Part shown: piece by piece, positions 1 to 56,413 of the stretch
How the letters are laid out: each line of letters opens with the position of its first letter
Numbering within the stretch: the first letter of the stretch is position 1
Origin: Bacteroidales bacterium
GTDB lineage: Bacteria; Bacteroidota; Bacteroidia; Bacteroidales; UBA12077
Length of the DNA: 64,000 nt
Assembly: GCA_963665525.1 (NCBI GenBank)
Contig: OY762280.1
Coordinates: 3,664,034-3,728,033, forward strand
Direction: 5' to 3'
The notes under the pieces: model-generated
The model's input: the letters and a program-made list of their open reading frames with translations, nothing else
The model's database searches: none
Told to the model about the DNA's origin: nothing
Made by a program: the position numbers and the translations under genes

Positions 1-1992
1 CTTACCATTATTATATCCCGTTAAGCCACCTGCTATAGCTCTCCAGTCATTGCTAGTATTACTTACACATATTCCCGTTGTGTAACAATTTGTGATTTCT
101 CCACCTTCGTAATACCCGGCCAAACCTCCAAGTTTTTTGCTCCCCTTAATGTTTACATTAGTTAATCCCAGGTTTTTAACCGTGGCATTTTTGGTTACAC
201 CAAACAAACCAATTAAACTATCTGTTGGCCGATTAATATATAAATGATTGATTATATATTCTCCCCCATCATAATTGCCTTCGAATACGGAAGTTAAGTT
301 TCCAATAGGGCTAAACCCATTACCATTATCCCAATTCACGGTTGTCGAAACATCAATATCGGCAGTTTGGATAAAATACTTATTCCACACCGTATCGCTG
401 CGCATTAACCAGGCTAAATTTGCGCGATTAGAGATAATATAAGGATTATCTGAACTACCTTCTCCATCAGGTATTTCTGTCTCTATATCGGTTATTTCAC
501 TCGCAACTGTTCCATTAGTTTCATACATCTCAGTACCATCACAGACATTATAAGCATAAACTTTAAAATAATATTCAGTTAATTCTGATAAGCCTGTCAC
601 TGTGATATTTGGATTATTAGACGTGCCAAAATAGATACATTGTTGACTATTGTTTTGCCATAGGATTTCAGCAACAGGCTCTGTTCCATCTTCAGGATCA
701 AGCCACAAATCTTCTGAATTTATATAAATGGCATATCCAACCGTTATATAACCAGACTCATCAAAACTATTAAGAGTAATGCTATTCCCATCAATACTAC
801 CAAAAACAATATTACTCGGTGCCGAGTATGGAGCTTCGCACTCTAAATTAATACTAGTATAATTCTGCCAGTGTAAAAATGGATAACCAGCATTATCACT
901 ACTGTTGATACCCCATAAATCTTCTGTCCCATTTATAGTTTCATCTATAAAATCCCAGTTAGCAACTAAATAGCTCCCTATATATTTCATCTCTGATATT
1001 GTTAATCCAACTCCTCCATCACTTGTATTTTGATTTGAAGTTTCTTTATCCCAAAAACAATTTGATATAAATCCACGAGAAATATAATTGCTCCCTATAA
1101 GACCTCCAAGAACATCATTCCCTACAACTTCTGTAGTGGAATATGATCTTGTTACTACTCCTAGCTTTACATCTGGAGAGTAATACCTCACCTCATCATT
1201 ATACCCAATTAATCCACCTATTATTTTATTCCCAGAGACAATCCCCTTAGAATATATATTGGTTACAATTCCTTCATTTTTCCCTGCAAATCCTCCTACT
1301 GTGTTATTCCCGATAACATTACATATTGAATATGATTTATTTATTTCACCATTATGCGAATACCAGGTAATAAAATGATCATTTAATCCAACAAATCCAC
1401 CTACTGTGTTATTTCCTGTAACATCCGCCTCAGAATAACAATTATAGATATATCGTAGATTTTTACCAACAAAACCACCAACTTCATCAGTTCCGTGGAT
1501 ATTCCCTTTTGTATAACATTTGTTTATTTGTCCATTATATAAAAATCCTACAAATCCACCAACCTTATTGCCTCCATTGATATCAACATTTGATAATCCT
1601 AAACTATCGATTCTGGCAGAAACTTTTCCAAATAATCCTATCTCATTTTCCAAAGGGCGATTTATATATAAACTATCAATAATTTGACCTTTCCCATTAT
1701 ACTTACCCGTAAACGATTTTGTTGAATTCCCTATTGGAGATAACCCTTTCTGTGCATCCCAATTTTTAGATTCTGCTGCATCAATATCAGCAGTTTGAAT
1801 AAAATGTTTGTCCCAAACAGTATCGCTTTGTGTCAGCCAATAAAGATTTTCCAATGATGCTATTTGGTATGGATTACTTTCAGAACCATCTCCAGCGGAT
1901 GGAGGAGTTGCTGTTTGGGAAAATACATGTAATGGTAATATTAAAACAAAGGCTAGTATAGCATGTTTTATGTATGTAATTTTTCTCATCAT
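1..1992 (-). CDS. Secreted GLUG-motif (GGLxG beta-helix-like) repeat protein with an FN3-like domain; partial, continues past the window start
   Basis: Absent from the ORF track because it has no stop in the window. My translation begins MMRKITYIKHAILAFVLILPLHVFSQTATPPSAGDGSESNPYQI (signal peptide). It has two GDGS/GEGSxxNPY...FIQTADID modules, many VGGFVG/GGLIG repeats and an intervening VTGLSELTEYYFKVYAYN FN3-like strand. Confidence 0.85.
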   Translation of the reverse strand, partial: MMRKITYIKHAILAFVLILPLHVFSQTATPPSAGDGSESNPYQIASLENLYWLTQSDTVWDKHFIQTADIDAAESKNWDAQKGLSPIGNSTKSFTGKYNGKGQIIDSLYINRPLENEIGLFGKVSARIDSLGLSNVDINGGNKVGGFVGFLYNGQINKCYTKGNIHGTDEVGGFVGKNLRYIYNCYSEADVTGNNTVGGFVGLNDHFITWYSHNGEINKSYSICNVIGNNTVGGFAGKNEGIVTNIYSKGIVSGNKIIGGLIGYNDEVRYYSPDVKLGVVTRSYSTTEVVGNDVLGGLIGSNYISRGFISNCFWDKETSNQNTSDGGVGLTISEMKYIGSYLVANWDFIDETINGTEDLWGINSSDNAGYPFLHWQNYTSINLECEAPYSAPSNIVFGSIDGNSITLNSFDESGYITVGYAIYINSEDLWLDPEDGTEPVAEILWQNNSQQCIYFGTSNNPNITVTGLSELTEYYFKVYAYNVCDGTEMYETNGTVASEITDIETEIPDGEGSSDNPYIISNRANLAWLMRSDTVWNKYFIQTADIDVSTTVNWDNGNGFSPIGNLTSVFEGNYDGGEYIINHLYINRPTDSLIGLFGVTKNATVKNLGLTNVNIKGSKKLGGLAGYYEGGEITNCYTTGICVSNTSNDWRAIAGGLTGYNNGK

Positions 1993-6016: not shown

Positions 6017-7168
6017 TTATTTTTTTAGAACAATGCGCATGTTAGTTCCTTTATTGATTTCGGAATAATTGACAAATATTTTTCCATTGTGATAAAGCTC
6101 AATAATTCGCTTAGACAAGGAAAGTCCTAAGCCCCATCCTCTTTGTTTTGTGGTATATCCCGGCTGAAAAATTGTCTTATACTTTGATTTTGCTAATCCT
6201 TTTCCTTCGTCAATAACATCAATAAACAGGTACTGAATTCTATCATCCATATTTACTGTTATTGTTCCATTCCCTTCCATTGAATCAATAGCATTTTTCA
6301 AAACGTTCTCAATAACCCATTCAAATAGTGAAATATTGAATGGCACCATTATTTTATCATTTTCAGAAAAATTGATGTTAAACTTAACTTTTTCAGATGA
6401 TCGTGCCTTTATATAATTAACCGCATGGAATAAAACATGAATAATATCTTGCTTTTCCAGTTTAGGTGCCGATCCTATTTTTGAAAAACGTTCCGTAATT
6501 TTCTCCAGCCTATTGACATCTTTTTCAAATTCGGCCACCACATTTTCATCTACGTTCTTTAATTTAAGTAATTCAAGACTTGCCATTAACGAGGATGTTG
6601 GAGTTCCTAATTGATGAGCAGTTTCTTTTGACATACCTACCCAAACCTGATTTTGCTCTGCTTTACGCGATGCACTAAAAGCAATATATGAAACAACTAA
6701 AAATAATGCTATTACTCCAAACTGAATAATCGGGAAATAAAATAAACGGGTAAGTAGAATGGATTCTTTATAATAGATGAAGTTTTTATTGCCATCAAGT
6801 AATGTAATTTCAATGGCATCGTTATCCTTTTTCATTTTTTCAAGCTGCTTGCTTAAATATTTAGGATCATTCTCTTTGTTTGGATCCAGATTTCGAGATG
6901 AAATAATCTCACCGTCTTTATCAGTTAAGATCACAGGAACCGTTTCGTTATTCTTAATGACTTCAAGAATAAAAGTATAATCTTTTTCTTGATTATCAAG
7001 AGCTGAAAGTTGTTTCATCCCTAAAGCCCATAATTCTACTTTCTTTCGCTCTTCGATGGCTAATTTTTTTGCCAGATTGTTGGTTATCAGAAATGTCGAA
7101 ATCCCAATGATAACTGCAACTATTAAAAGCAACAGCTTCCATTTCTGTTTTTTGGTATAAATACTCAA
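6017..7168 (-). CDS. Membrane sensor histidine kinase (no adjacent response regulator)
   Basis: Two TM segments, ETAHQLGTP H-box, ENVLKNAIDSM N-box, DEGKG, GWGLGLSL; TTG start. Confidence 0.92.
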   Translation of the reverse strand: MSIYTKKQKWKLLLLIVAVIIGISTFLITNNLAKKLAIEERKKVELWALGMKQLSALDNQEKDYTFILEVIKNNETVPVILTDKDGEIISSRNLDPNKENDPKYLSKQLEKMKKDNDAIEITLLDGNKNFIYYKESILLTRLFYFPIIQFGVIALFLVVSYIAFSASRKAEQNQVWVGMSKETAHQLGTPTSSLMASLELLKLKNVDENVVAEFEKDVNRLEKITERFSKIGSAPKLEKQDIIHVLFHAVNYIKARSSEKVKFNINFSENDKIMVPFNISLFEWVIENVLKNAIDSMEGNGTITVNMDDRIQYLFIDVIDEGKGLAKSKYKTIFQPGYTTKQRGWGLGLSLSKRIIELYHNGKIFVNYSEINKGTNMRIVLKK

Positions 7169-7275
7169 GGTTATTGTGTTTAAATAAATCGTAAAAATAA
7201 CAATCCTAAATAATCAAGCCAAGAAATAAGACTCTAAAATATTGGTTGATTCGTTAATAAAAGATGTTGTTTTTA

Positions 7276-7657
7276 TCTTTCTCCTTGATGAGAAAGAAAC
7301 AAAGAATCAAGAAAAAACGATGCTTCCTCCCTCACTGTGAGGCTTAAAGAGTTTTAATATAAAGCAGGCAAGCCTCTTTACATAAACTCTAAAAACCTCA
7401 CATTCTCTCAAACGCCTGGCTCGCCGTTTTTTCAGGTCAACGCTCATCATTTACAACTATAGATTAAATTAGTAATAGTGTGGTGGGAAATCCGAAATGT
7501 GTGCGGAATTGTTGATAATCACCATGCGACCACGATTCTTGATATGAGGAATTGTACTTTTAAACTTTTTTGAAATAGGTATTGATCTGTGAAAAAAGGA
7601 CTGATTATCAAAATTCATTCATTTCGGTTGATTTTGGTTCTTTTATCAAGAAAAGAA
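7276..7657. repeat. Structured non-coding element with imperfect terminal inverted repeats (MITE-like or ncRNA pair)
   Basis: Left end TCTTTCTC-CTTGAT-GAGAAAGA..ATCAAG; right end on the minus strand TTCTTTT-CTTGAT-AAAAGAA..ATCAA. Multiple internal stems. No ORF in the track. Confidence 0.65.
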
Positions 7658-7739
7658 GCAATAATATTTAAAAGAAGATCTAGAAAATAAATACCTTAGG
7701 TTATTTTGCGGAAACTAATTAAACTCAAAATGGTTTTAA

Positions 7740-10373
7740 CTATTTAACAGTTGTATCTTCCTCCCACTCAATCTCGAATTTTGGATCTGATTCTAATTTG
7801 GTATTCTGTTTTGCTTCCTTTTCTTTTTTAGTTTCATCGAACTCTATTTGAAAATTTTCCTGATTACTTTCTCTGTTTTCAACCTTTATTGAAGTATCAT
7901 TTTTATACCATCCAAATTCTTCGTTAAGGATTTCTTTCAATTCTTTTTTCTCCTCTTTCATGTTTTCTTTTCGATCTCGTCTTGCTGCTTTGCGATCGTA
8001 CTTAATACGACTTTTGTCTTGATCACCTTCTAAGCGTAAATAAAGTGTTATCCTTCCTTCCTTATCCTCTTCAAGTTGATCATTAAACTGTTTTTTGCGA
8101 TTTGATCTTTTCATTTTCCCGGACAATAAATCAGATAATAAAACTTTTAAATGATAAGAATATTCGCTGTTAAAACCATGAGTGCCTGAAGCCGTAAGAT
8201 TTAATGCTGATGATTGAATATCCATCTGTGGTATAATAACCTGTTCGTTTTTTATGGTTATTTGATTTTTTAAGGTTGAAAATTTGATGTTTTTCAATTC
8301 ATCCATATCAATAAACCTTGATAATCCCAACATAGGTTCAAAATCATTCAACTCTCCATTGGTAATAGTTAAATCACAATCTGAATTAACCGATTGTTTA
8401 TATATTTCAATCTTATCAGACCATTCGGACGAAAAATAAACATCACCGGTTAAATCTCCTTCTACATTTTGATTTGATATAAAATCTTGTCCAAAGTTGT
8501 TAAATGAATAAAACAATTTATTCATGTTGATACCTGTTAACCTGCTCTGTGATTTTATCATAAAATCATTATTATACTTTTGAATAATAACTCCTCCCGC
8601 TTTAACATTACCATTCATTGAATTAAACGATACTTCATGTAATGAAAACATTTTTGGTTTATAGTTAAGATTTCCTTTTATATCAGTTGCATAAAATTTT
8701 CCAAGCTCAAAATTTTCAATGTTGAGTCTTAACTGTAATGCAAGTTTTTCTGGAAAATGAAACGATTCAGAACCACCTCCTTCTTTATCCGTTTTAAAAA
8801 GTAATGATAATTCGTCCAGGTTAATTTTACGGGAATATAACTTGGCATTTATATTAAAAATATCGCGTTGGTTAAAATATTCAAACAATTTTGAAATGCG
8901 ACCACGAATTAAAAAATCATTGTTATTAATCTTAAAGAAAAGACTGTCGGTATACAATGTTCTGTTAAGATTTATATTTCCTGTAAGCTGATTTAATACT
9001 AAAGGATGATTTTTAAATTTAAGTTCTCCTTCTTTTAATCTGACTTGTACACTATAATCTTTTGTAAACAGATCGCGAAATCGAAAGGACCGTAGCTCAT
9101 CATAACTACCACTATATTTAATTTCTGATTCTGCATAGCCATTTAAAATATCAATGGTGTCAATTTCAAAAATGTTTTTTATTTCATCAAGATAAAGTTC
9201 AGAATGTAAATCAAGTTTTATTTGGGGGTTTTTAAAATCGGATAATTTGAAAACTCCTTGAAAAAAGTTCTGTTCTACATTAAAACTAAAACTTTTAAAA
9301 ACCAAGCGGGAAGTATGAGCCATGTTTTTGGTACCATTGGTAAACTCACCATCAATATTCATATTACTTAAACGTATTTCTCTTTCTTCATCAAAAAGTT
9401 GAGCATCACTCAATAAGAATAGTGCTTCAATGTGTGGTTTATTAACCTTAATGTTTTCTCCTGTAATACTTAAATTTAATGTAGCTGTTCCTTGCTGACC
9501 AATAATGTTTGGAAATTCATTGATAATTTTGGGTGGTAAGTTGTTTATAAAAGTTCTTAAATCAAGGTTTTTCCCCGAAACGATTAAATCTATTTTCTTT
9601 TTTCCTGACTTTTCAATATTCCCATTCAGGTTAAATTTTAAATTGTCCAGATTCAAATTGCCATTTTTAAATTTGATCAAATCATTGACAATATCTAAAT
9701 TTAATCTGCCTTTTACCTTTTTATTCGATATATAATCAATATTTTCAATGTTTAATTTTTCAATAAACTGATCCGTCTTTATTTTCATCAGGTAAGTTCG
9801 CTTCGAGAAATTACCTTCAAAGTCCATGTTATCTACGGTTGACTCTAGAATAAACTTGGTAGCATCGTTACAAAAAAGAATGTTGGTATTGCTAATTCGC
9901 ACTTTTGTTAGCTCAAGACTAAATTCACTTTCTTCCAGCTCTTCCTCTTTCGTCTTCCAAAAAATATAATTTGGATCGCCCAGATAATCAACAAATAGAT
10001 TAATATTCCCCTGATCGAAATGAATGCTACTAATTGTATAGTTTTTAGTAATTAAATCTAAAATGTTGATTTGCACATAAATACTTTTTGCAAAAAATAG
10101 GGTATCCGTATTAAATTCCTGAACGGATTTAAAATATCCTTGCTTGGAGTGTGCAAGTACATTCTTAAACTCAAGTGATGCTTTAGGAAATTTCTGCAGT
10201 AATGAAAAGTTAACATCCTCAACTTCAACTTCGGCTAAAAGATACTCGTTTAGTTCCTCAATAAGATACTGACTAACCTGATCTTCGTAAAAATATGCAA
10301 GTGAAGTTGCGATAGCTATTAAAATCACGAGAGCAAGTGATAATCCAATGAATATTGATTTTATATTTCGCAT
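7740..10373 (-). CDS. AsmA-like (bridge-like lipid-transfer family) envelope protein
   Basis: N-terminal TM anchor, FSLLQKFPKASLEF, repeated amphipathic beta segments, C-terminal IPQMDIQSSALNLTASGTHGF; 877 aa. Confidence 0.8.
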   Translation of the reverse strand: MRNIKSIFIGLSLALVILIAIATSLAYFYEDQVSQYLIEELNEYLLAEVEVEDVNFSLLQKFPKASLEFKNVLAHSKQGYFKSVQEFNTDTLFFAKSIYVQINILDLITKNYTISSIHFDQGNINLFVDYLGDPNYIFWKTKEEELEESEFSLELTKVRISNTNILFCNDATKFILESTVDNMDFEGNFSKRTYLMKIKTDQFIEKLNIENIDYISNKKVKGRLNLDIVNDLIKFKNGNLNLDNLKFNLNGNIEKSGKKKIDLIVSGKNLDLRTFINNLPPKIINEFPNIIGQQGTATLNLSITGENIKVNKPHIEALFLLSDAQLFDEEREIRLSNMNIDGEFTNGTKNMAHTSRLVFKSFSFNVEQNFFQGVFKLSDFKNPQIKLDLHSELYLDEIKNIFEIDTIDILNGYAESEIKYSGSYDELRSFRFRDLFTKDYSVQVRLKEGELKFKNHPLVLNQLTGNINLNRTLYTDSLFFKINNNDFLIRGRISKLFEYFNQRDIFNINAKLYSRKINLDELSLLFKTDKEGGGSESFHFPEKLALQLRLNIENFELGKFYATDIKGNLNYKPKMFSLHEVSFNSMNGNVKAGGVIIQKYNNDFMIKSQSRLTGINMNKLFYSFNNFGQDFISNQNVEGDLTGDVYFSSEWSDKIEIYKQSVNSDCDLTITNGELNDFEPMLGLSRFIDMDELKNIKFSTLKNQITIKNEQVIIPQMDIQSSALNLTASGTHGFNSEYSYHLKVLLSDLLSGKMKRSNRKKQFNDQLEEDKEGRITLYLRLEGDQDKSRIKYDRKAARRDRKENMKEEKKELKEILNEEFGWYKNDTSIKVENRESNQENFQIEFDETKKEKEAKQNTKLESDPKFEIEWEEDTTVK

Positions 10374-18359: not shown

Positions 18360-20408
18360 TTAAACCTTTATTCCCATTACTAAAACATCATCAATCTGCT
18401 CCTTATCTCCTTTCCAGTTATCAAATTCCGTTTCTAAAATTCTTTTCTGTTCACTCATTGATTTATCTCTCATTGAAATCAGCATTTCTTTAAATGGAGT
18501 AATTTTAAATTTAGCAGTATTTGGTCCGCCAAACTGATCAATATAACCATCTGTAAATATATATATCATATCTCCTTTTAGAATATCAATTTCATGATTT
18601 GTAAATGATTCCTTTTCTAAGATATGTATTCCTATTGGCATTCTATCTGCCTTAAGCGATATGAGTTCATTGTTTCGTATTAAATAAAGCGGATTATATG
18701 CCCCGGCATATTGAAGTTTATTCTCTTTTGGATCGATAATACATAATGCGATATCCATTCCGTCTTTTGCTTCATTTTCTTTTCCTGTTTGATGAAGCGA
18801 CAGCTTAACATTATCTCTTAACTGATTTAATATTTCGTTTGCTCTTAATTCTGTTTCTTTATTTACAATTTCATTTAAAAAAGCAAAACCAAGCATGCTC
18901 ATAAATGCTCCCGGTACACCATGACCTGTACAATCAACTACTGCTACAATGGTTTTCCCTTCTTTATGAGTAATCCAATAAAAATCACCACTCACGATAT
19001 CTCGTGGTTTGTAAAAAATAAAATGATCAGGAATTACTGTAGCAATATAATCAACTGGAGGTAAGATAGCCGTTTGTATTCTACTCGCATATTCGATACT
19101 ATCTGTTATTTGTCTTTTTTGATATGCTAATAATACATTTGCTTTACGGATTTTTTTGTTTTGAGAAAATAGAACCAATAGAAATAAAAATATAGCAACA
19201 AATCCTACTAAGAGTGTAAGAGAAAAATTTCTCTGCTTCTTGATGGTTAAATCTTTAATAATTTGCTCATTTTCCAGGTTCTTTATTTGCTGTTCTTTTT
19301 TCTTGGTTTCATATTTAGTTTCAAGTTCTTTGATCTGTTTTGATTTTTCTGCATTAAATATAGAGTCGTTTAAAGCATGAGCAACCTCAGCATACTCCAG
19401 TGCACTCTTATAGTCCAGCTCTTCTTTGTAAATCTGATAGAGTAGATCATAAAAATCACTTAAGTCATCCAAAGCATTGATTTCCTGTGCTAATATTATT
19501 CCTTTATTGCAATATTGTTTGGCTGCATTAAAATTGTCTCTTCCAAAATACAAAGCAGCTATTGAAAAATATGTGGCTACCTGTTCTCCTTTTTCCCCAA
19601 GTTCTTCTTCTAATTTTAGAATTTTAAAGTATGTGTTTAGTGCTTTTTCTTTTTGTCCAATGATACTATGAATCTCTGCTAAATTCGACAAAGCCATTAA
19701 TTGTCTTCGAAGATTTCCCAGCTCAAGATACATTTGATAAGCTTTTTCGAAATAATTTCGAACATTATCATAATCCTCCAGATAATAATTCACAATGGCC
19801 ATATTATTATATAAAAGAGCAATTCCTTCTTTATCATCTATTTGAGATCTTATTTCAAGCGATTTTTTATAAAGTTCCAGGCTTTTTTCATAATCTTCAT
19901 GCCTAGAATACAACAACCCTAAGTTTAAATATGTCTTTGCAACTCCAATGGTATCACCCAGGTTTTCATATACATTGAGCGCTTTCATGAAATTACTCAT
20001 GGCCTCATCGTATTTCCCCATTTTATCGTATGCCGCTCCCTGATTTAAATATGCCGTTGCTGTTCCTTTATAAAAGCCTTTCTCCTCACAAATAAACATT
20101 GCTTTTTTCATAATGTCAATGGATTTCTCGTATTCTCCGGTAATTATGTAAAACTTGCCTATTCTGTTAAGAACTTCAACTTTTAATGCAACATCTTCTG
20201 AATTTTCAACAATTTTTAAAGCTTGTTCTAAATATTGTTTTCCTTCCACAATTTTCCCTTTTTCGTAGTTTTCATAAATTTCAATGAGAAGCTTCACTTT
20301 TGTGGAGTCGCCCGATTGGTTTACTAAACTTTTTAAACTATCGATGTTTGTTGTTTGAGAAAACAGTACACCTGGAAATAGGAGTAGGATAAATAAAATG
20401 GTCCGCAT
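18360..20408 (-). CDS. TPR-sensor / SpoIIE (PP2C) Ser/Thr phosphatase
   Basis: Signal peptide (likely start MRTILF), TPR repeats, TM, IVSGDFYW, DCTGHGVPGAFMS, DGMD, DGYIDQFGG, QIDD. Confidence 0.9.
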   Translation of the reverse strand: MRTILFILLLFPGVLFSQTTNIDSLKSLVNQSGDSTKVKLLIEIYENYEKGKIVEGKQYLEQALKIVENSEDVALKVEVLNRIGKFYIITGEYEKSIDIMKKAMFICEEKGFYKGTATAYLNQGAAYDKMGKYDEAMSNFMKALNVYENLGDTIGVAKTYLNLGLLYSRHEDYEKSLELYKKSLEIRSQIDDKEGIALLYNNMAIVNYYLEDYDNVRNYFEKAYQMYLELGNLRRQLMALSNLAEIHSIIGQKEKALNTYFKILKLEEELGEKGEQVATYFSIAALYFGRDNFNAAKQYCNKGIILAQEINALDDLSDFYDLLYQIYKEELDYKSALEYAEVAHALNDSIFNAEKSKQIKELETKYETKKKEQQIKNLENEQIIKDLTIKKQRNFSLTLLVGFVAIFLFLLVLFSQNKKIRKANVLLAYQKRQITDSIEYASRIQTAILPPVDYIATVIPDHFIFYKPRDIVSGDFYWITHKEGKTIVAVVDCTGHGVPGAFMSMLGFAFLNEIVNKETELRANEILNQLRDNVKLSLHQTGKENEAKDGMDIALCIIDPKENKLQYAGAYNPLYLIRNNELISLKADRMPIGIHILEKESFTNHEIDILKGDMIYIFTDGYIDQFGGPNTAKFKITPFKEMLISMRDKSMSEQKRILETEFDNWKGDKEQIDDVLVMGIKV

Positions 20409-20565
20409 AATTTCTAAAAAAAGATTTTTGAGTTTTAAATTTAACACTATCCTACGTATTATCTTAATATTTGTTTTCTAATTTATTTTAATAAGTAATA
20501 ATTATTAAATATTTACTTATAGTAACTAATTATTTATTTCTGTTCTCCAAATTATTATATAAAAT

Positions 20566-20594
20566 AAAAAAACGACCATTTTTTGTGGTCGTTT
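20566..20594 (-). terminator. Intrinsic terminator of the sigma/anti-sigma/barrel unit
   Basis: AAACGACCA-loop-TGGTCGTTT with a U-tract on the minus strand. Confidence 0.75.
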
Positions 20595-20615
20595 AATCTA
20601 TATCTTAAATAAATA

Positions 20616-21461
20616 CTATTCAAATGAAAGCGCTATTCCTACAGAAATAGGATATAATTCTGGTCCTTTATCCTTTTCAAAAAGTGGAGTAAAGTAATAT
20701 GTTCCATAAATTAACCAGTCACCTACACCAATTCGCGCATGTACACCATATCTAAAAGGAGATAAGTTAAAATCATCTTTTGTTTTATCTTTATTTTTAT
20801 CTCCATTTTCCTTATAAACAACTTTTGTATTAGAACCTAATTTAACACCTCCTATAGCGCCTGCTGAGAATACTACTCCATTGTGTGAATATGATGAAGA
20901 ATGCCATTCAAGCAATAATGGTAATGTTGCATAAGTTGTAGATAACTTGGATTTTTCAATGTTCCAGTTTGGCTGTGTTATGGAAAGATCTACTTCTTCA
21001 ATCACTCCAGTTGTTGGATTTTCCTGGATGGAATTATCATTATCAAAACGATAATAGTTCCATTCAATACCTAAACCTGTTACCAAGCCAAATTTATTAT
21101 TAATTAAATTTATACTGTACTGAGCAAAGTTAACATTCATGTTCCATGATTTTCCAGTATTTAAATCCATATATTCCTCTCCCAACTCACGACTCAAAGA
21201 AAAATCTTTATCCACAAAGTTGCTTAATCCCATGGAAAAGCTTGCCCATGAACCTTTAAATCTGTCATCATCGTCCCACATCCAATCCCAGTCTTTATCT
21301 CTTTTATGCTTCTTTACATAAATTTGAGTTTCACCATTATCTTCAATAATTTTTACTGTTTTTCTTTTAAACCGGATATTGGTTGTATCATTGTTTTCTT
21401 CTTGTGCAAAAACACTTAATGTAATCATTAAGGTAATTAATATTAGTGCTATCTTTTTCAT
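20616..21461 (-). CDS. Outer-membrane beta-barrel protein
   Basis: Signal peptide, alternating aromatic strands, ends ISVGIALSFE. Confidence 0.8.
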   Translation of the reverse strand: MKKIALILITLMITLSVFAQEENNDTTNIRFKRKTVKIIEDNGETQIYVKKHKRDKDWDWMWDDDDRFKGSWASFSMGLSNFVDKDFSLSRELGEEYMDLNTGKSWNMNVNFAQYSINLINNKFGLVTGLGIEWNYYRFDNDNSIQENPTTGVIEEVDLSITQPNWNIEKSKLSTTYATLPLLLEWHSSSYSHNGVVFSAGAIGGVKLGSNTKVVYKENGDKNKDKTKDDFNLSPFRYGVHARIGVGDWLIYGTYYFTPLFEKDKGPELYPISVGIALSFE

Positions 21462-56245: not shown

Positions 56246-56321
56246 ATAGATCATTTTACAACAAAATTACTTTTTGTTAAAAAGGCTTAAATTATGTTTT
56301 TGTATATGAAATTAATTTCTC

Positions 56322-56329
56322 TAATTTTG
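56322..56329 (+). promoter_or_regulatory. -7 element of the tRNA promoter
   Basis: TAATTTTG 12 bp before the tRNA, with TTTG about 20 bp further upstream. Confidence 0.65.
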
Positions 56330-56341
56330 TGCACGATTAAT

Positions 56342-56413
56342 GGCCCCATAGTTCAAGGGATAGAATAGCAGTTTCCTAAACTGTAGATACAAGTTCGAGT
56401 CTTGTTGGGGCTA
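56342..56413 (+). tRNA. tRNA-Arg(CCT)
   Basis: Acceptor GGCCCCA/TGGGGCT+A, D-arm GTTC..GAAT, anticodon arm GCAGT-TTCCTAA-ACTGT, T-arm ACAAG-TTCGAGT-CTTGT; CCA not encoded. Confidence 0.96.

Follow-up and report, generated by a model that had tools for sequence, protein, structure and literature searches.

Several kinds of dispersed or structured non-coding sequence in bacteria resemble, in part, the element described here. The BIME/REP (REPIN) repeats of proteobacteria are dispersed, non-coding intergenic mosaics of palindromic units in alternating orientation that show no target-site duplication, are transcribed with neighbouring genes and depend on functions supplied in trans; REP units are simple hairpins of 20–40 nt with a GTAG/CGTC head, clustered round a RAYT gene. 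ERIC/IRU, Correia (CREE), RUP and other MITEs measure 100–500 bp, have inverted ends, lie in spacers, form long hairpins when transcribed and can alter mRNA processing; a MITE derives from a parent insertion sequence (IS), its terminal inverted repeats match and a target-site duplication flanks it. The IS200/IS605-derived PATEs and the TnpB/IscB guide RNAs offer subterminal hairpins, insertion without duplication and a pseudoknotted RNA of 150–300 nt that reads to the element end. Integron attC sites are imperfect inverted repeats round a variable centre, conserved in structure and variable in sequence, that are recognised as folded single strands. Finally, structured RNAs of Bacteroidota held in Rfam, such as Bacteroidales-1, Flavo-1 and Pedo-repair, are candidates from comparative genomics alone, some of them multi-copy. 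As represented by listings and abstracts, the nearest literature is a survey of REP superfamilies (PMC3733652) and a report of a Porphyromonas gingivalis MITE (PMC4596501), and no published description of an element like the present one was found in those listings and abstracts.

The present element occupies positions 7262–7668 of the window, the whole 64,000-nt stretch of Bacteroidales DNA that we analysed. It is non-coding and fills most of a 570-bp spacer (7169–7739) between two minus-strand ORFs. A left unit of type L (7262–7452, plus strand) and a right unit of type RA (7478–7668, minus strand) face each other, and between the inner ends of the units lies an AT-rich spacer (7434–7477) that is poorly conserved in alignments. 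Four features make up a unit: a T-rich/A-rich terminal hairpin; pairing of its 6-nt loop with sequence 8–14 nt farther on, past an A-rich linker, which forms an H-type pseudoknot; a long-range closing helix; and a variable interior. Units measure about 110–190 nt and carry a short conserved tail. The first-pass annotation had proposed two convergent units of common architecture in a discrete, non-coding, repeated element, and both proposals are borne out, the second by paralogs, profile matches and broken reading frames; the stems that it listed are all present on direct reading and were recovered independently by a repeat finder. Six-frame translations of eight copies gave no open frame common to all, and the longest shared frame is interrupted by stops in the window copy and in a second copy of the same genome (locus L002). 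A type I toxin–antitoxin locus was set aside on the same translations, since the eight copies hold no conserved small ORF. The reading that we tentatively prefer is that the window carries one copy of a dispersed, non-coding, BIME/ERIC-like mosaic family of self-folding, pseudoknot-capped units, in which the single-stranded fold would be selected and RNA would probably arise by read-through.

The left unit reads hairpin-first on the plus strand (nhmmer profile match 7264–7451; 25-copy alignment A2, with covariation). Its terminal hairpin H1 (7276–7297) has an 8-bp pyrimidine/purine stem (7276–83/7290–97; TCTTTCTC/GAGAAAGA) and a CTTGAT loop (7284–89), and extends imperfectly to 7267–7306; the repeat finder recovered the hairpin as I4. 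An A-rich linker (7298–7305) leads to ATCAAG (7306–7311), the pseudoknot partner of that loop. The domain that follows (7311–7433) is closed by the long-range helix H2, in which GAAAAAACG (7311–19) pairs with CGTTTTTTC (7425–33; I25, 9 nt, 100%), and holds an inner imperfect hairpin (7336–54/7384–7402; I2, 19-nt arms, 84%) together with the conserved single-stranded motifs CTTC.. and ..CTGGCTCGCC.

The right unit reads hairpin-first on the minus strand and is defined by a profile match and a 19-copy alignment (A3). In its terminal module (7628–7657), TTGAT at 7628–32 is complementary to ATCAA (7645–49) in the loop of the hairpin 7638–44/7651–57; the whole loop reads ATCAAG on the plus strand and CTTGAT hairpin-first. 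Between 7492 and 7627 lie the long-range closing helices, which in the alignment are 7492–7501/7618–27, 7506–10/7612–16 and 7512–20/7603–11; in the window copy 7492–99/7620–27, 7506–10/7612–16 and 7512–21/7602–11 (I12, 100%) all pair. The interior that they close off is variable and roughly 80 nt long. Folded as single sequences, L (7268–7445) gave z −2.93, with 0 of 200 shuffles as good, and RA (7476–7665) gave z −2.15, with 5 of 200 as good. A generic genome-wide scan for a pyrimidine-arm hairpin with a downstream complement of its loop returned 57 rows, with some hairpins entered twice at different loop lengths. The majority are AT-rich sites of no relation to the element, and this type of motif is by itself unremarkable. 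Because this generic motif is common and the single-copy folds are only moderately better than shuffles, the case rests on comparison across copies.

That comparison shows that base pairing, not sequence, has been kept by evolution in both L and RA. Over 25 left-unit copies and 54 pairs, 94.3% of cells are paired, against 85.2% in 500 shuffles and 36–51% when partners are slid as a control; both sides of the pair have changed in 29 of the 54 pairs (14.5 ± 2.2 in shuffles, none of the 500 reaching 29), including 6/9 pairs of helix 1 (H1) and 22/36 pairs of helices 3–5. The corresponding test of RA (19 right-unit copies, 37 pairs, 500 shuffles) gave 97.0% of cells paired, against 93.1% in shuffles and 39–58% with partners slid, and both-side changes in 10 of 37 pairs (3.5 ± 1.3 in shuffles; 0/500 reach 10). 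These changes fall in helices 1–2 (6/24 pairs, with 96.8% and 99.2% of cells paired) and helix 4 (4/8 pairs). Paralogs likewise differ in sequence and retain the structure. The inner hairpin of the window L unit has almost no sequence in common with the usual type, as compared with locus L010, and keeps its helices, and small GC-rich hairpins have been inserted in units only in loops and linkers. The suggestion in the first-pass annotation that structure is conserved over sequence is thus upheld by covariation in both units.

The proposed pseudoknot fared unevenly. In L it covaries between CTTGAT/ATCAAG and CTTGAC/GTCAAG, a change at one position only (pair 30–90: UA in 11 copies, CG in 10, UG in 3, other in 1; 25 copies). 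Both states occur inside an L subgroup marked by a common insertion, so they do not reflect one single evolutionary event. The pseudoknot of RA (helix 3) hardly varies over 19 copies and shows complementarity, with pseudoknot covariation coming from L only. The identical loop that had been pointed out at both ends is likewise true of the window, where both read CTTGAT, but in most relatives the left loop reads CTTGAC and the right CTTGAT.

The element is an insertion relative to related genomes. Downstream of it lies a histidine-kinase-like gene (6020–7168 in the ORF 6017–7168, minus strand; Pfam HATPase_c, E 1.6e-17) and upstream a gene for an 877-aa protein (7743–10373 in the ORF 7740–10373, minus strand), called AsmA in the first-pass annotation, which matches no Pfam family at E ≤ 0.001; both lie outside the element. 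Synteny of this gene pair extends to all 36 relatives. Twelve relatives were read, each with the two flank matches on a single contig, and the element is absent from the orthologous spacer in all 12. The flank-to-flank gap measures 18–235 nt in 11 of them and 1.8 kb in the twelfth, G033; the corresponding distance in the window is 544 nt. This confirms the expected insertion at the orthologous spacer, in spacers too diverged for a base-by-base empty-site alignment. The long gap in G033 (contig C45, ~19540–21357, locus L043) holds an unrelated insertion of about 1.8 kb at the same site, which suggests that the spacer may be an insertion hot spot.

An imperfect 33-nt direct repeat (73%) at 7157–7189 and 7687–7719 brackets the whole spacer insert, its first copy overlapping the conserved leader of the kinase gene. 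It was considered as an att-like duplication, but AT-rich chance or promoter similarity is the probable explanation.

The family is repeated, with a patchy distribution. In the complete window genome (4.6 Mb, 31.7% G+C) it is present at five loci: the right half has two paralogs, of 78% and 76% identity, one of which, at L002, also has the left half upstream, and two more loci carry left-type copies. The four loci besides that of the window lie near genome positions 1.337, 2.378, 3.557 and 4.588 Mb. A profile scan of this genome found three L, three RA and a few divergent copies. None bears an ORF, so the copies enclosing an ORF that had been proposed as autonomous partners did not materialize there. 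Among the 36 other genomes of the genus, L is present in 17, RA in 13 and one or the other in 21; RA was found in 0 of 19 genomes of three sister genera. Single genomes have up to 16 matches (10–16 in the richest, of which G024 has the most copies), and many copies lie at contig ends. At 76–78% identity the paralogs within a genome are old, which fits retained functional loci as well as a selfish repeat.

L and RA are independent modules rather than the paired termini of a single transposon. In other species, the alignable part of composite copies begins a little beyond the left hairpin and stops a little beyond the right one. At eight loci with common flanks, apparently orthologous and all in a single orientation, the partner of L is instead RB (~330 nt), a quite different right unit. 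Tandem and divergent unit orders also occur (L024, L064, L068), and repeat similarity often continues past the hairpins into adjoining units. The idea in the first-pass annotation that the two halves are the ends of one mobile element therefore fails: their genome distributions differ, they combine with further types of unit in arrays of convergent, divergent or tandem order, and, as their loops show in most relatives, the end hairpins do not co-evolve.

The surroundings of the copies do not point to a function. By hand count, gene arrangements are mixed (about 10 tandem, 4 convergent and 2 divergent), and at the 32 loci with listed ORFs the flanks are unrelated housekeeping or island genes, with an integrase at one locus only. 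'End-only' copies in G024, checked as possible ORF flanks, are RA copies at contig ends or beside housekeeping genes and have a further 230 nt of repeat in common.

More distant relatives were sought by pattern. A degenerate 19-nt pattern matched at least 121 stretches of genome contigs; most of the 80 loci examined are chance matches in high-GC genomes, and among those 80 the profiles confirmed five 'Bacteroidales/Bacteroidetes bacterium' MAG loci and three loci in Solitalea longa. The Solitalea copies are mini-units of about 110 nt that follow the common plan and keep its conserved strands. A stricter motif gave 0 matches in 401 sampled genomes of the phylum, a result that carries little weight on distant relatives because the pattern is narrow: even the window genome (G000) scored 0, its own copies differing at two positions. 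Scans of viral contigs gave no match either.

Two other structured sequences accompany these units. At two loci of Solitalea longa (L102 ~1280–1400 and L117 ~1280–1400, both minus strand), the mini-unit is followed about 100 nt downstream by another conserved block of some 120 nt, GC-rich and structured in appearance, which in one case stands just before an integrase gene and has no Rfam match. The GC-rich mini-hairpins of about 20 nt (CCTGCC..GGCAGG-like, TCCCGAAAGCTTTCGGGA-like) form a separate family scattered through these AT-rich genomes, for example at L026 (~1448–1674), L034, L016, L014, L023, L035, L073/L059 and L002 (1345–1365). Besides the loops and linkers of units, they are found in L046 within the coding 3′ part of the 877-aa gene; they look REP-like and may belong with Y1 (RAYT-like) genes.

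Which strand, and whether RNA or DNA, is selected is suggested mainly by topology. Read hairpin-first, the pseudoknot has a loop 1 of 0–1 nt and an A-rich loop 3 of 8–11 nt, whereas on the opposite strand loop 3 would be 0–1 nt, a length that the stereochemical rules of H-type pseudoknots disfavour. From these lengths and rules, which make the topology workable on that strand, we infer that the hairpin-first strand is the selected form. Wobble counts lean weakly the other way: the hairpin-first strand of L has 12 G–T and 22 A–C cells, and the plus strand of RA, its opposite, outward strand, has 39 G–T (20 of them in one column) and 10 A–C cells, in each case from few independent events. Covariation of base pairs would arise equally in folded single-stranded DNA.

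The organism uses the canonical Bacteroidota promoter, as a perfect match (TTTG-N19-TAATTTTG) stands 12 nt before the mature 5′ end of the window's tRNA gene (56283–56413, 63.5 bits). Across 17 composite copies (8 L+RA and 9 L+RB), by contrast, TTTG-N19-21-TAnnTTTG was found at no consistent place in or beside the units on either strand, and no terminator-like sites were found in the units. This speaks against self-standing RNA genes, including the convergent pair of non-coding RNA genes that the first-pass annotation had entertained. Reading by eye suggested TTG motifs resembling a −7 element before the hairpins, and a formal scan gave them no support. As the units have neither a canonical promoter nor a terminator of their own, we judge read-through from neighbouring genes to be the most likely source of any RNA; both flanking genes lie on the same strand, which we count in its favour. 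A marine-sediment metatranscriptome held one 151-nt contig identical to 7391–7541, which spans the L/RA junction, and had no match to the flanking genes; the contig is unstranded, has a depth of 2 and is possibly DNA carry-over, from a run that contained 0.06 of the sampled words. A search for expression data turned up no RNA run from this organism. Parts of the stretch left uncovered in X1 and X7 carry no evidential weight.

In this family, units of differing types (L, RA, RB and others) are joined head-out in convergent pairs and longer arrays, and one such pair, L + RA, was inserted between the 877-aa gene and the histidine-kinase gene. The comparisons above show its repeated nature, the insertion, the modularity, the lack of coding capacity and the selection on base pairing. 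Under our preferred reading, the selected form would be the single strand read hairpin-first, most likely produced as RNA by read-through from neighbouring genes, and a convergent pair would offer one sense unit under transcription from either side. Such a unit might act in cis on the transcript that contains it, setting mRNA stability by serving, for instance, as a processing site or a folded barrier. Its spread would depend on trans-acting factors or recombination rather than on anything that the element encodes.

Possible, though unlikely in our estimation, is that each unit is its own small-RNA gene, making a stable RNA of about 170–190 nt with a 5′ pseudoknot cap, and that the window holds two convergent genes of a paralogous, horizontally spreading family of trans-acting small RNAs, each either regulatory or the RNA component of a ribonucleoprotein. 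Such genes would be suited by strong covariation, by insertions that resemble expansion segments and by complex folds in which single-stranded motifs are conserved, as they would by the retention of units at common-flank loci in several species and paralogs whose sequences have diverged with their structure intact. One L subgroup even has CTTTG-N20-ATCATTTG 5 nt before the hairpin, but a canonical promoter at no consistent place on either strand, in an organism whose tRNA gene has a perfect one, is hard to reconcile with dedicated genes, as is the lack of any terminator found; the sole TTG-ending motif of RA abuts the hairpin, so that a start there would cut it. The metatranscriptome contig cuts both ways, matching the element and not its flanking genes but crossing between the units, which is unexpected for two separately ended RNAs. 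Finally, closing ends of units adjoin tyrosine-integrase genes at L003 and L117, and tRNA and tmRNA genes are known to do the same, but the two integrases are only 27% identical and the single integrase among the 32 loci with listed ORFs makes such adjacency rare.

We consider it unlikely, too, that this is a non-autonomous mobile DNA element, with an enzyme in trans that recognises its ends or whole units in the form of folded single-stranded DNA (an HUH/Y1 transposase, an integron-integrase-like enzyme or another), with the folds as substrates. Such an element would account for the insertion relative to relatives, the patchy distribution with many copies at contig ends and the inverted hairpin modules that bound the elements; the structure is equally valid as DNA, and the wobble counts favour no clear RNA strand. 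At 19 loci scanned, no consistent direct repeat was found beside the terminal hairpins, in several cases with one or no hairpin passing the filter and with fuzzy ends. The earlier remark that no target-site duplication is visible therefore holds, as it would for insertion of the IS200/IS605 type. The end hairpins, however, are inverted, whereas those of IS200/IS605 share one strand sense, and within a given element they do not co-evolve. The complete genome, with all 3 L, 3 RA and the few divergent copies accounted for, has no ORF-bearing copy; the TnpB domain has 0 matches in it, and its two Y1-type genes are without flanking hairpins. Strong IS200-type TnpA matches turn up in 10 of the 15 genomes that lack units, and 6 of the 22 genomes with units, among them the copy-richest, G024, have none. 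The first-pass annotation had envisaged an enzyme acting in trans on folded ends, and no tested enzyme tracks the units. Additionally, the identity between copies of one genome argues against a recent burst, and the exact ends are undefinable because conservation runs on into adjoining units.

The two Y1_Tnp genes of the window genome (IS200-like/RAYT-like) lie at L078 1267–1872 (minus strand) and L079 1423–1983 (plus strand) and encode 202 and 187 aa; most sister genomes have several canonical IS200 TnpA genes of 150–160 aa.

A bolder and rather improbable reading makes of the units mobile modular cassettes of a novel class, in which a recombinase or nuclease supplied in trans would grip the pseudoknot-capped fold as its specific handle, whether in RNA or in folded single-stranded DNA, the interior would be a specificity or guide domain, and integrase adjacency would be its trace. 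Unit ends do adjoin integrase genes in two distant species, the window genome (L003) and Solitalea longa (L117), a hint of something beyond the read-through repeat model; both enzymes are ordinary Bacteroidota integrases. At L003, an RA paralog (1501–1687) lies 420 nt from a tyrosine-integrase gene (2–1078, minus strand; Phage_integrase, Arm-DNA-bind_5, SAM_5). Beside the paralog is an RB-like unit (~1850–2165), and a 35-nt partial repeat of the inner end of RA lies at ~2130–2165; this arrangement may be an island border.

Invertible promoters abound in Bacteroidales, and the weakest reading takes the two ends, each a 7-6-7 palindrome with a CTTGAT spacer, as core sites at which a tyrosine recombinase flips the 380-bp segment and so switches the downstream kinase gene; the end palindromes are indeed inverted to each other with an identical 6-bp spacer in the window copy, and the element does lie upstream of a gene, but this reading is very improbable and largely refuted, as spacers (CTTGAC and CTTGAT) and arms differ in most relatives, the stems covary as for base pairing rather than for fixed protein half-sites, all eight L+RB loci with common flanks share one orientation, contigs of four sequencing runs (three of them DNA runs) hold no strand-changing joint, and the interior has no promoter and is itself under structural selection.

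If our preferred reading of a dispersed mosaic family is true, it adds a well-supported structured non-coding family, with units of 110–190 nt, modules that can be exchanged and a pseudoknot that covaries. Its source is a marine lineage of Bacteroidales that has received little study, in a phylum whose dispersed structured repeats are poorly described. The family is also a clean test case for whether the selected fold of intergenic repeats is RNA or single-stranded DNA, and by what it is recognised. The loci of the complete genome are few enough for knock-outs and end-mapping, and the 21 of 36 sister genomes with units supply variety enough for covariation and partner-protein profiling. Even as a merely selfish repeat it would matter for annotation, as it breaks assemblies at contig ends and yields spurious ORFs.

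Set beside known families, the element fits none by name, as the first-pass annotation had anticipated. At the gathering score, Rfam 15 returned only a tRNA from the window; a permissive search of 7100–7800, up to E = 10, gave six matches (E 3.8–7), all far below the gathering score and none lying on a unit, and up to E = 1 no unit at seven related loci had a match, so it also stands apart from the Bacteroidota structured RNAs held there. Unlike attC sites, the copies have no cassette ORFs and no arrays beside an integron integrase, are larger and include a pseudoknot, and the R″/R′ core motif was not seen at their ends by eye against the consensus. An IS200/IS605 element or PATE was rejected because the end loops read CTTGAT on opposite strands, TnpB is absent and Y1_Tnp is not co-distributed; in keeping with this, no IS605-orfB or HEARO match was found in Rfam, the hairpins are inverted and IS200 TnpA shows no link with the units.

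MITEs were considered and rejected as well. The arms of the two ends differ in the window (TCTTTCTC and TTCTTTT), with only the hairpin plan in common, and copies of the L010 type have unlike loops as well as unlike arms at their two ends; an autonomous IS with the same ends did not emerge either, the complete genome having only ORF-less copies and the 32 loci being flanked by unrelated genes. Neither matching terminal inverted repeats, nor a target-site duplication at the 19 loci scanned, nor a parent IS was found, and unlike those of MITEs the halves fold separately and recombine with other partners. With BIMEs the family shares its dispersed, non-coding, intergenic mosaics of units in alternating orientation and, under the preferred reading, would share transcription with neighbouring genes and dependence on functions in trans. 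A REP/BIME family with a RAYT was nonetheless rejected: the units measure 110–190 nt, not 20–40, and the two Y1_Tnp genes have no such hairpins alongside; unlike REP units, moreover, these have a pseudoknot, a long-range helix and variable interiors. The family is thus a previously uncatalogued one, built from blocks far larger and more elaborately folded than those of BIME/REP, ERIC or Correia repeats.
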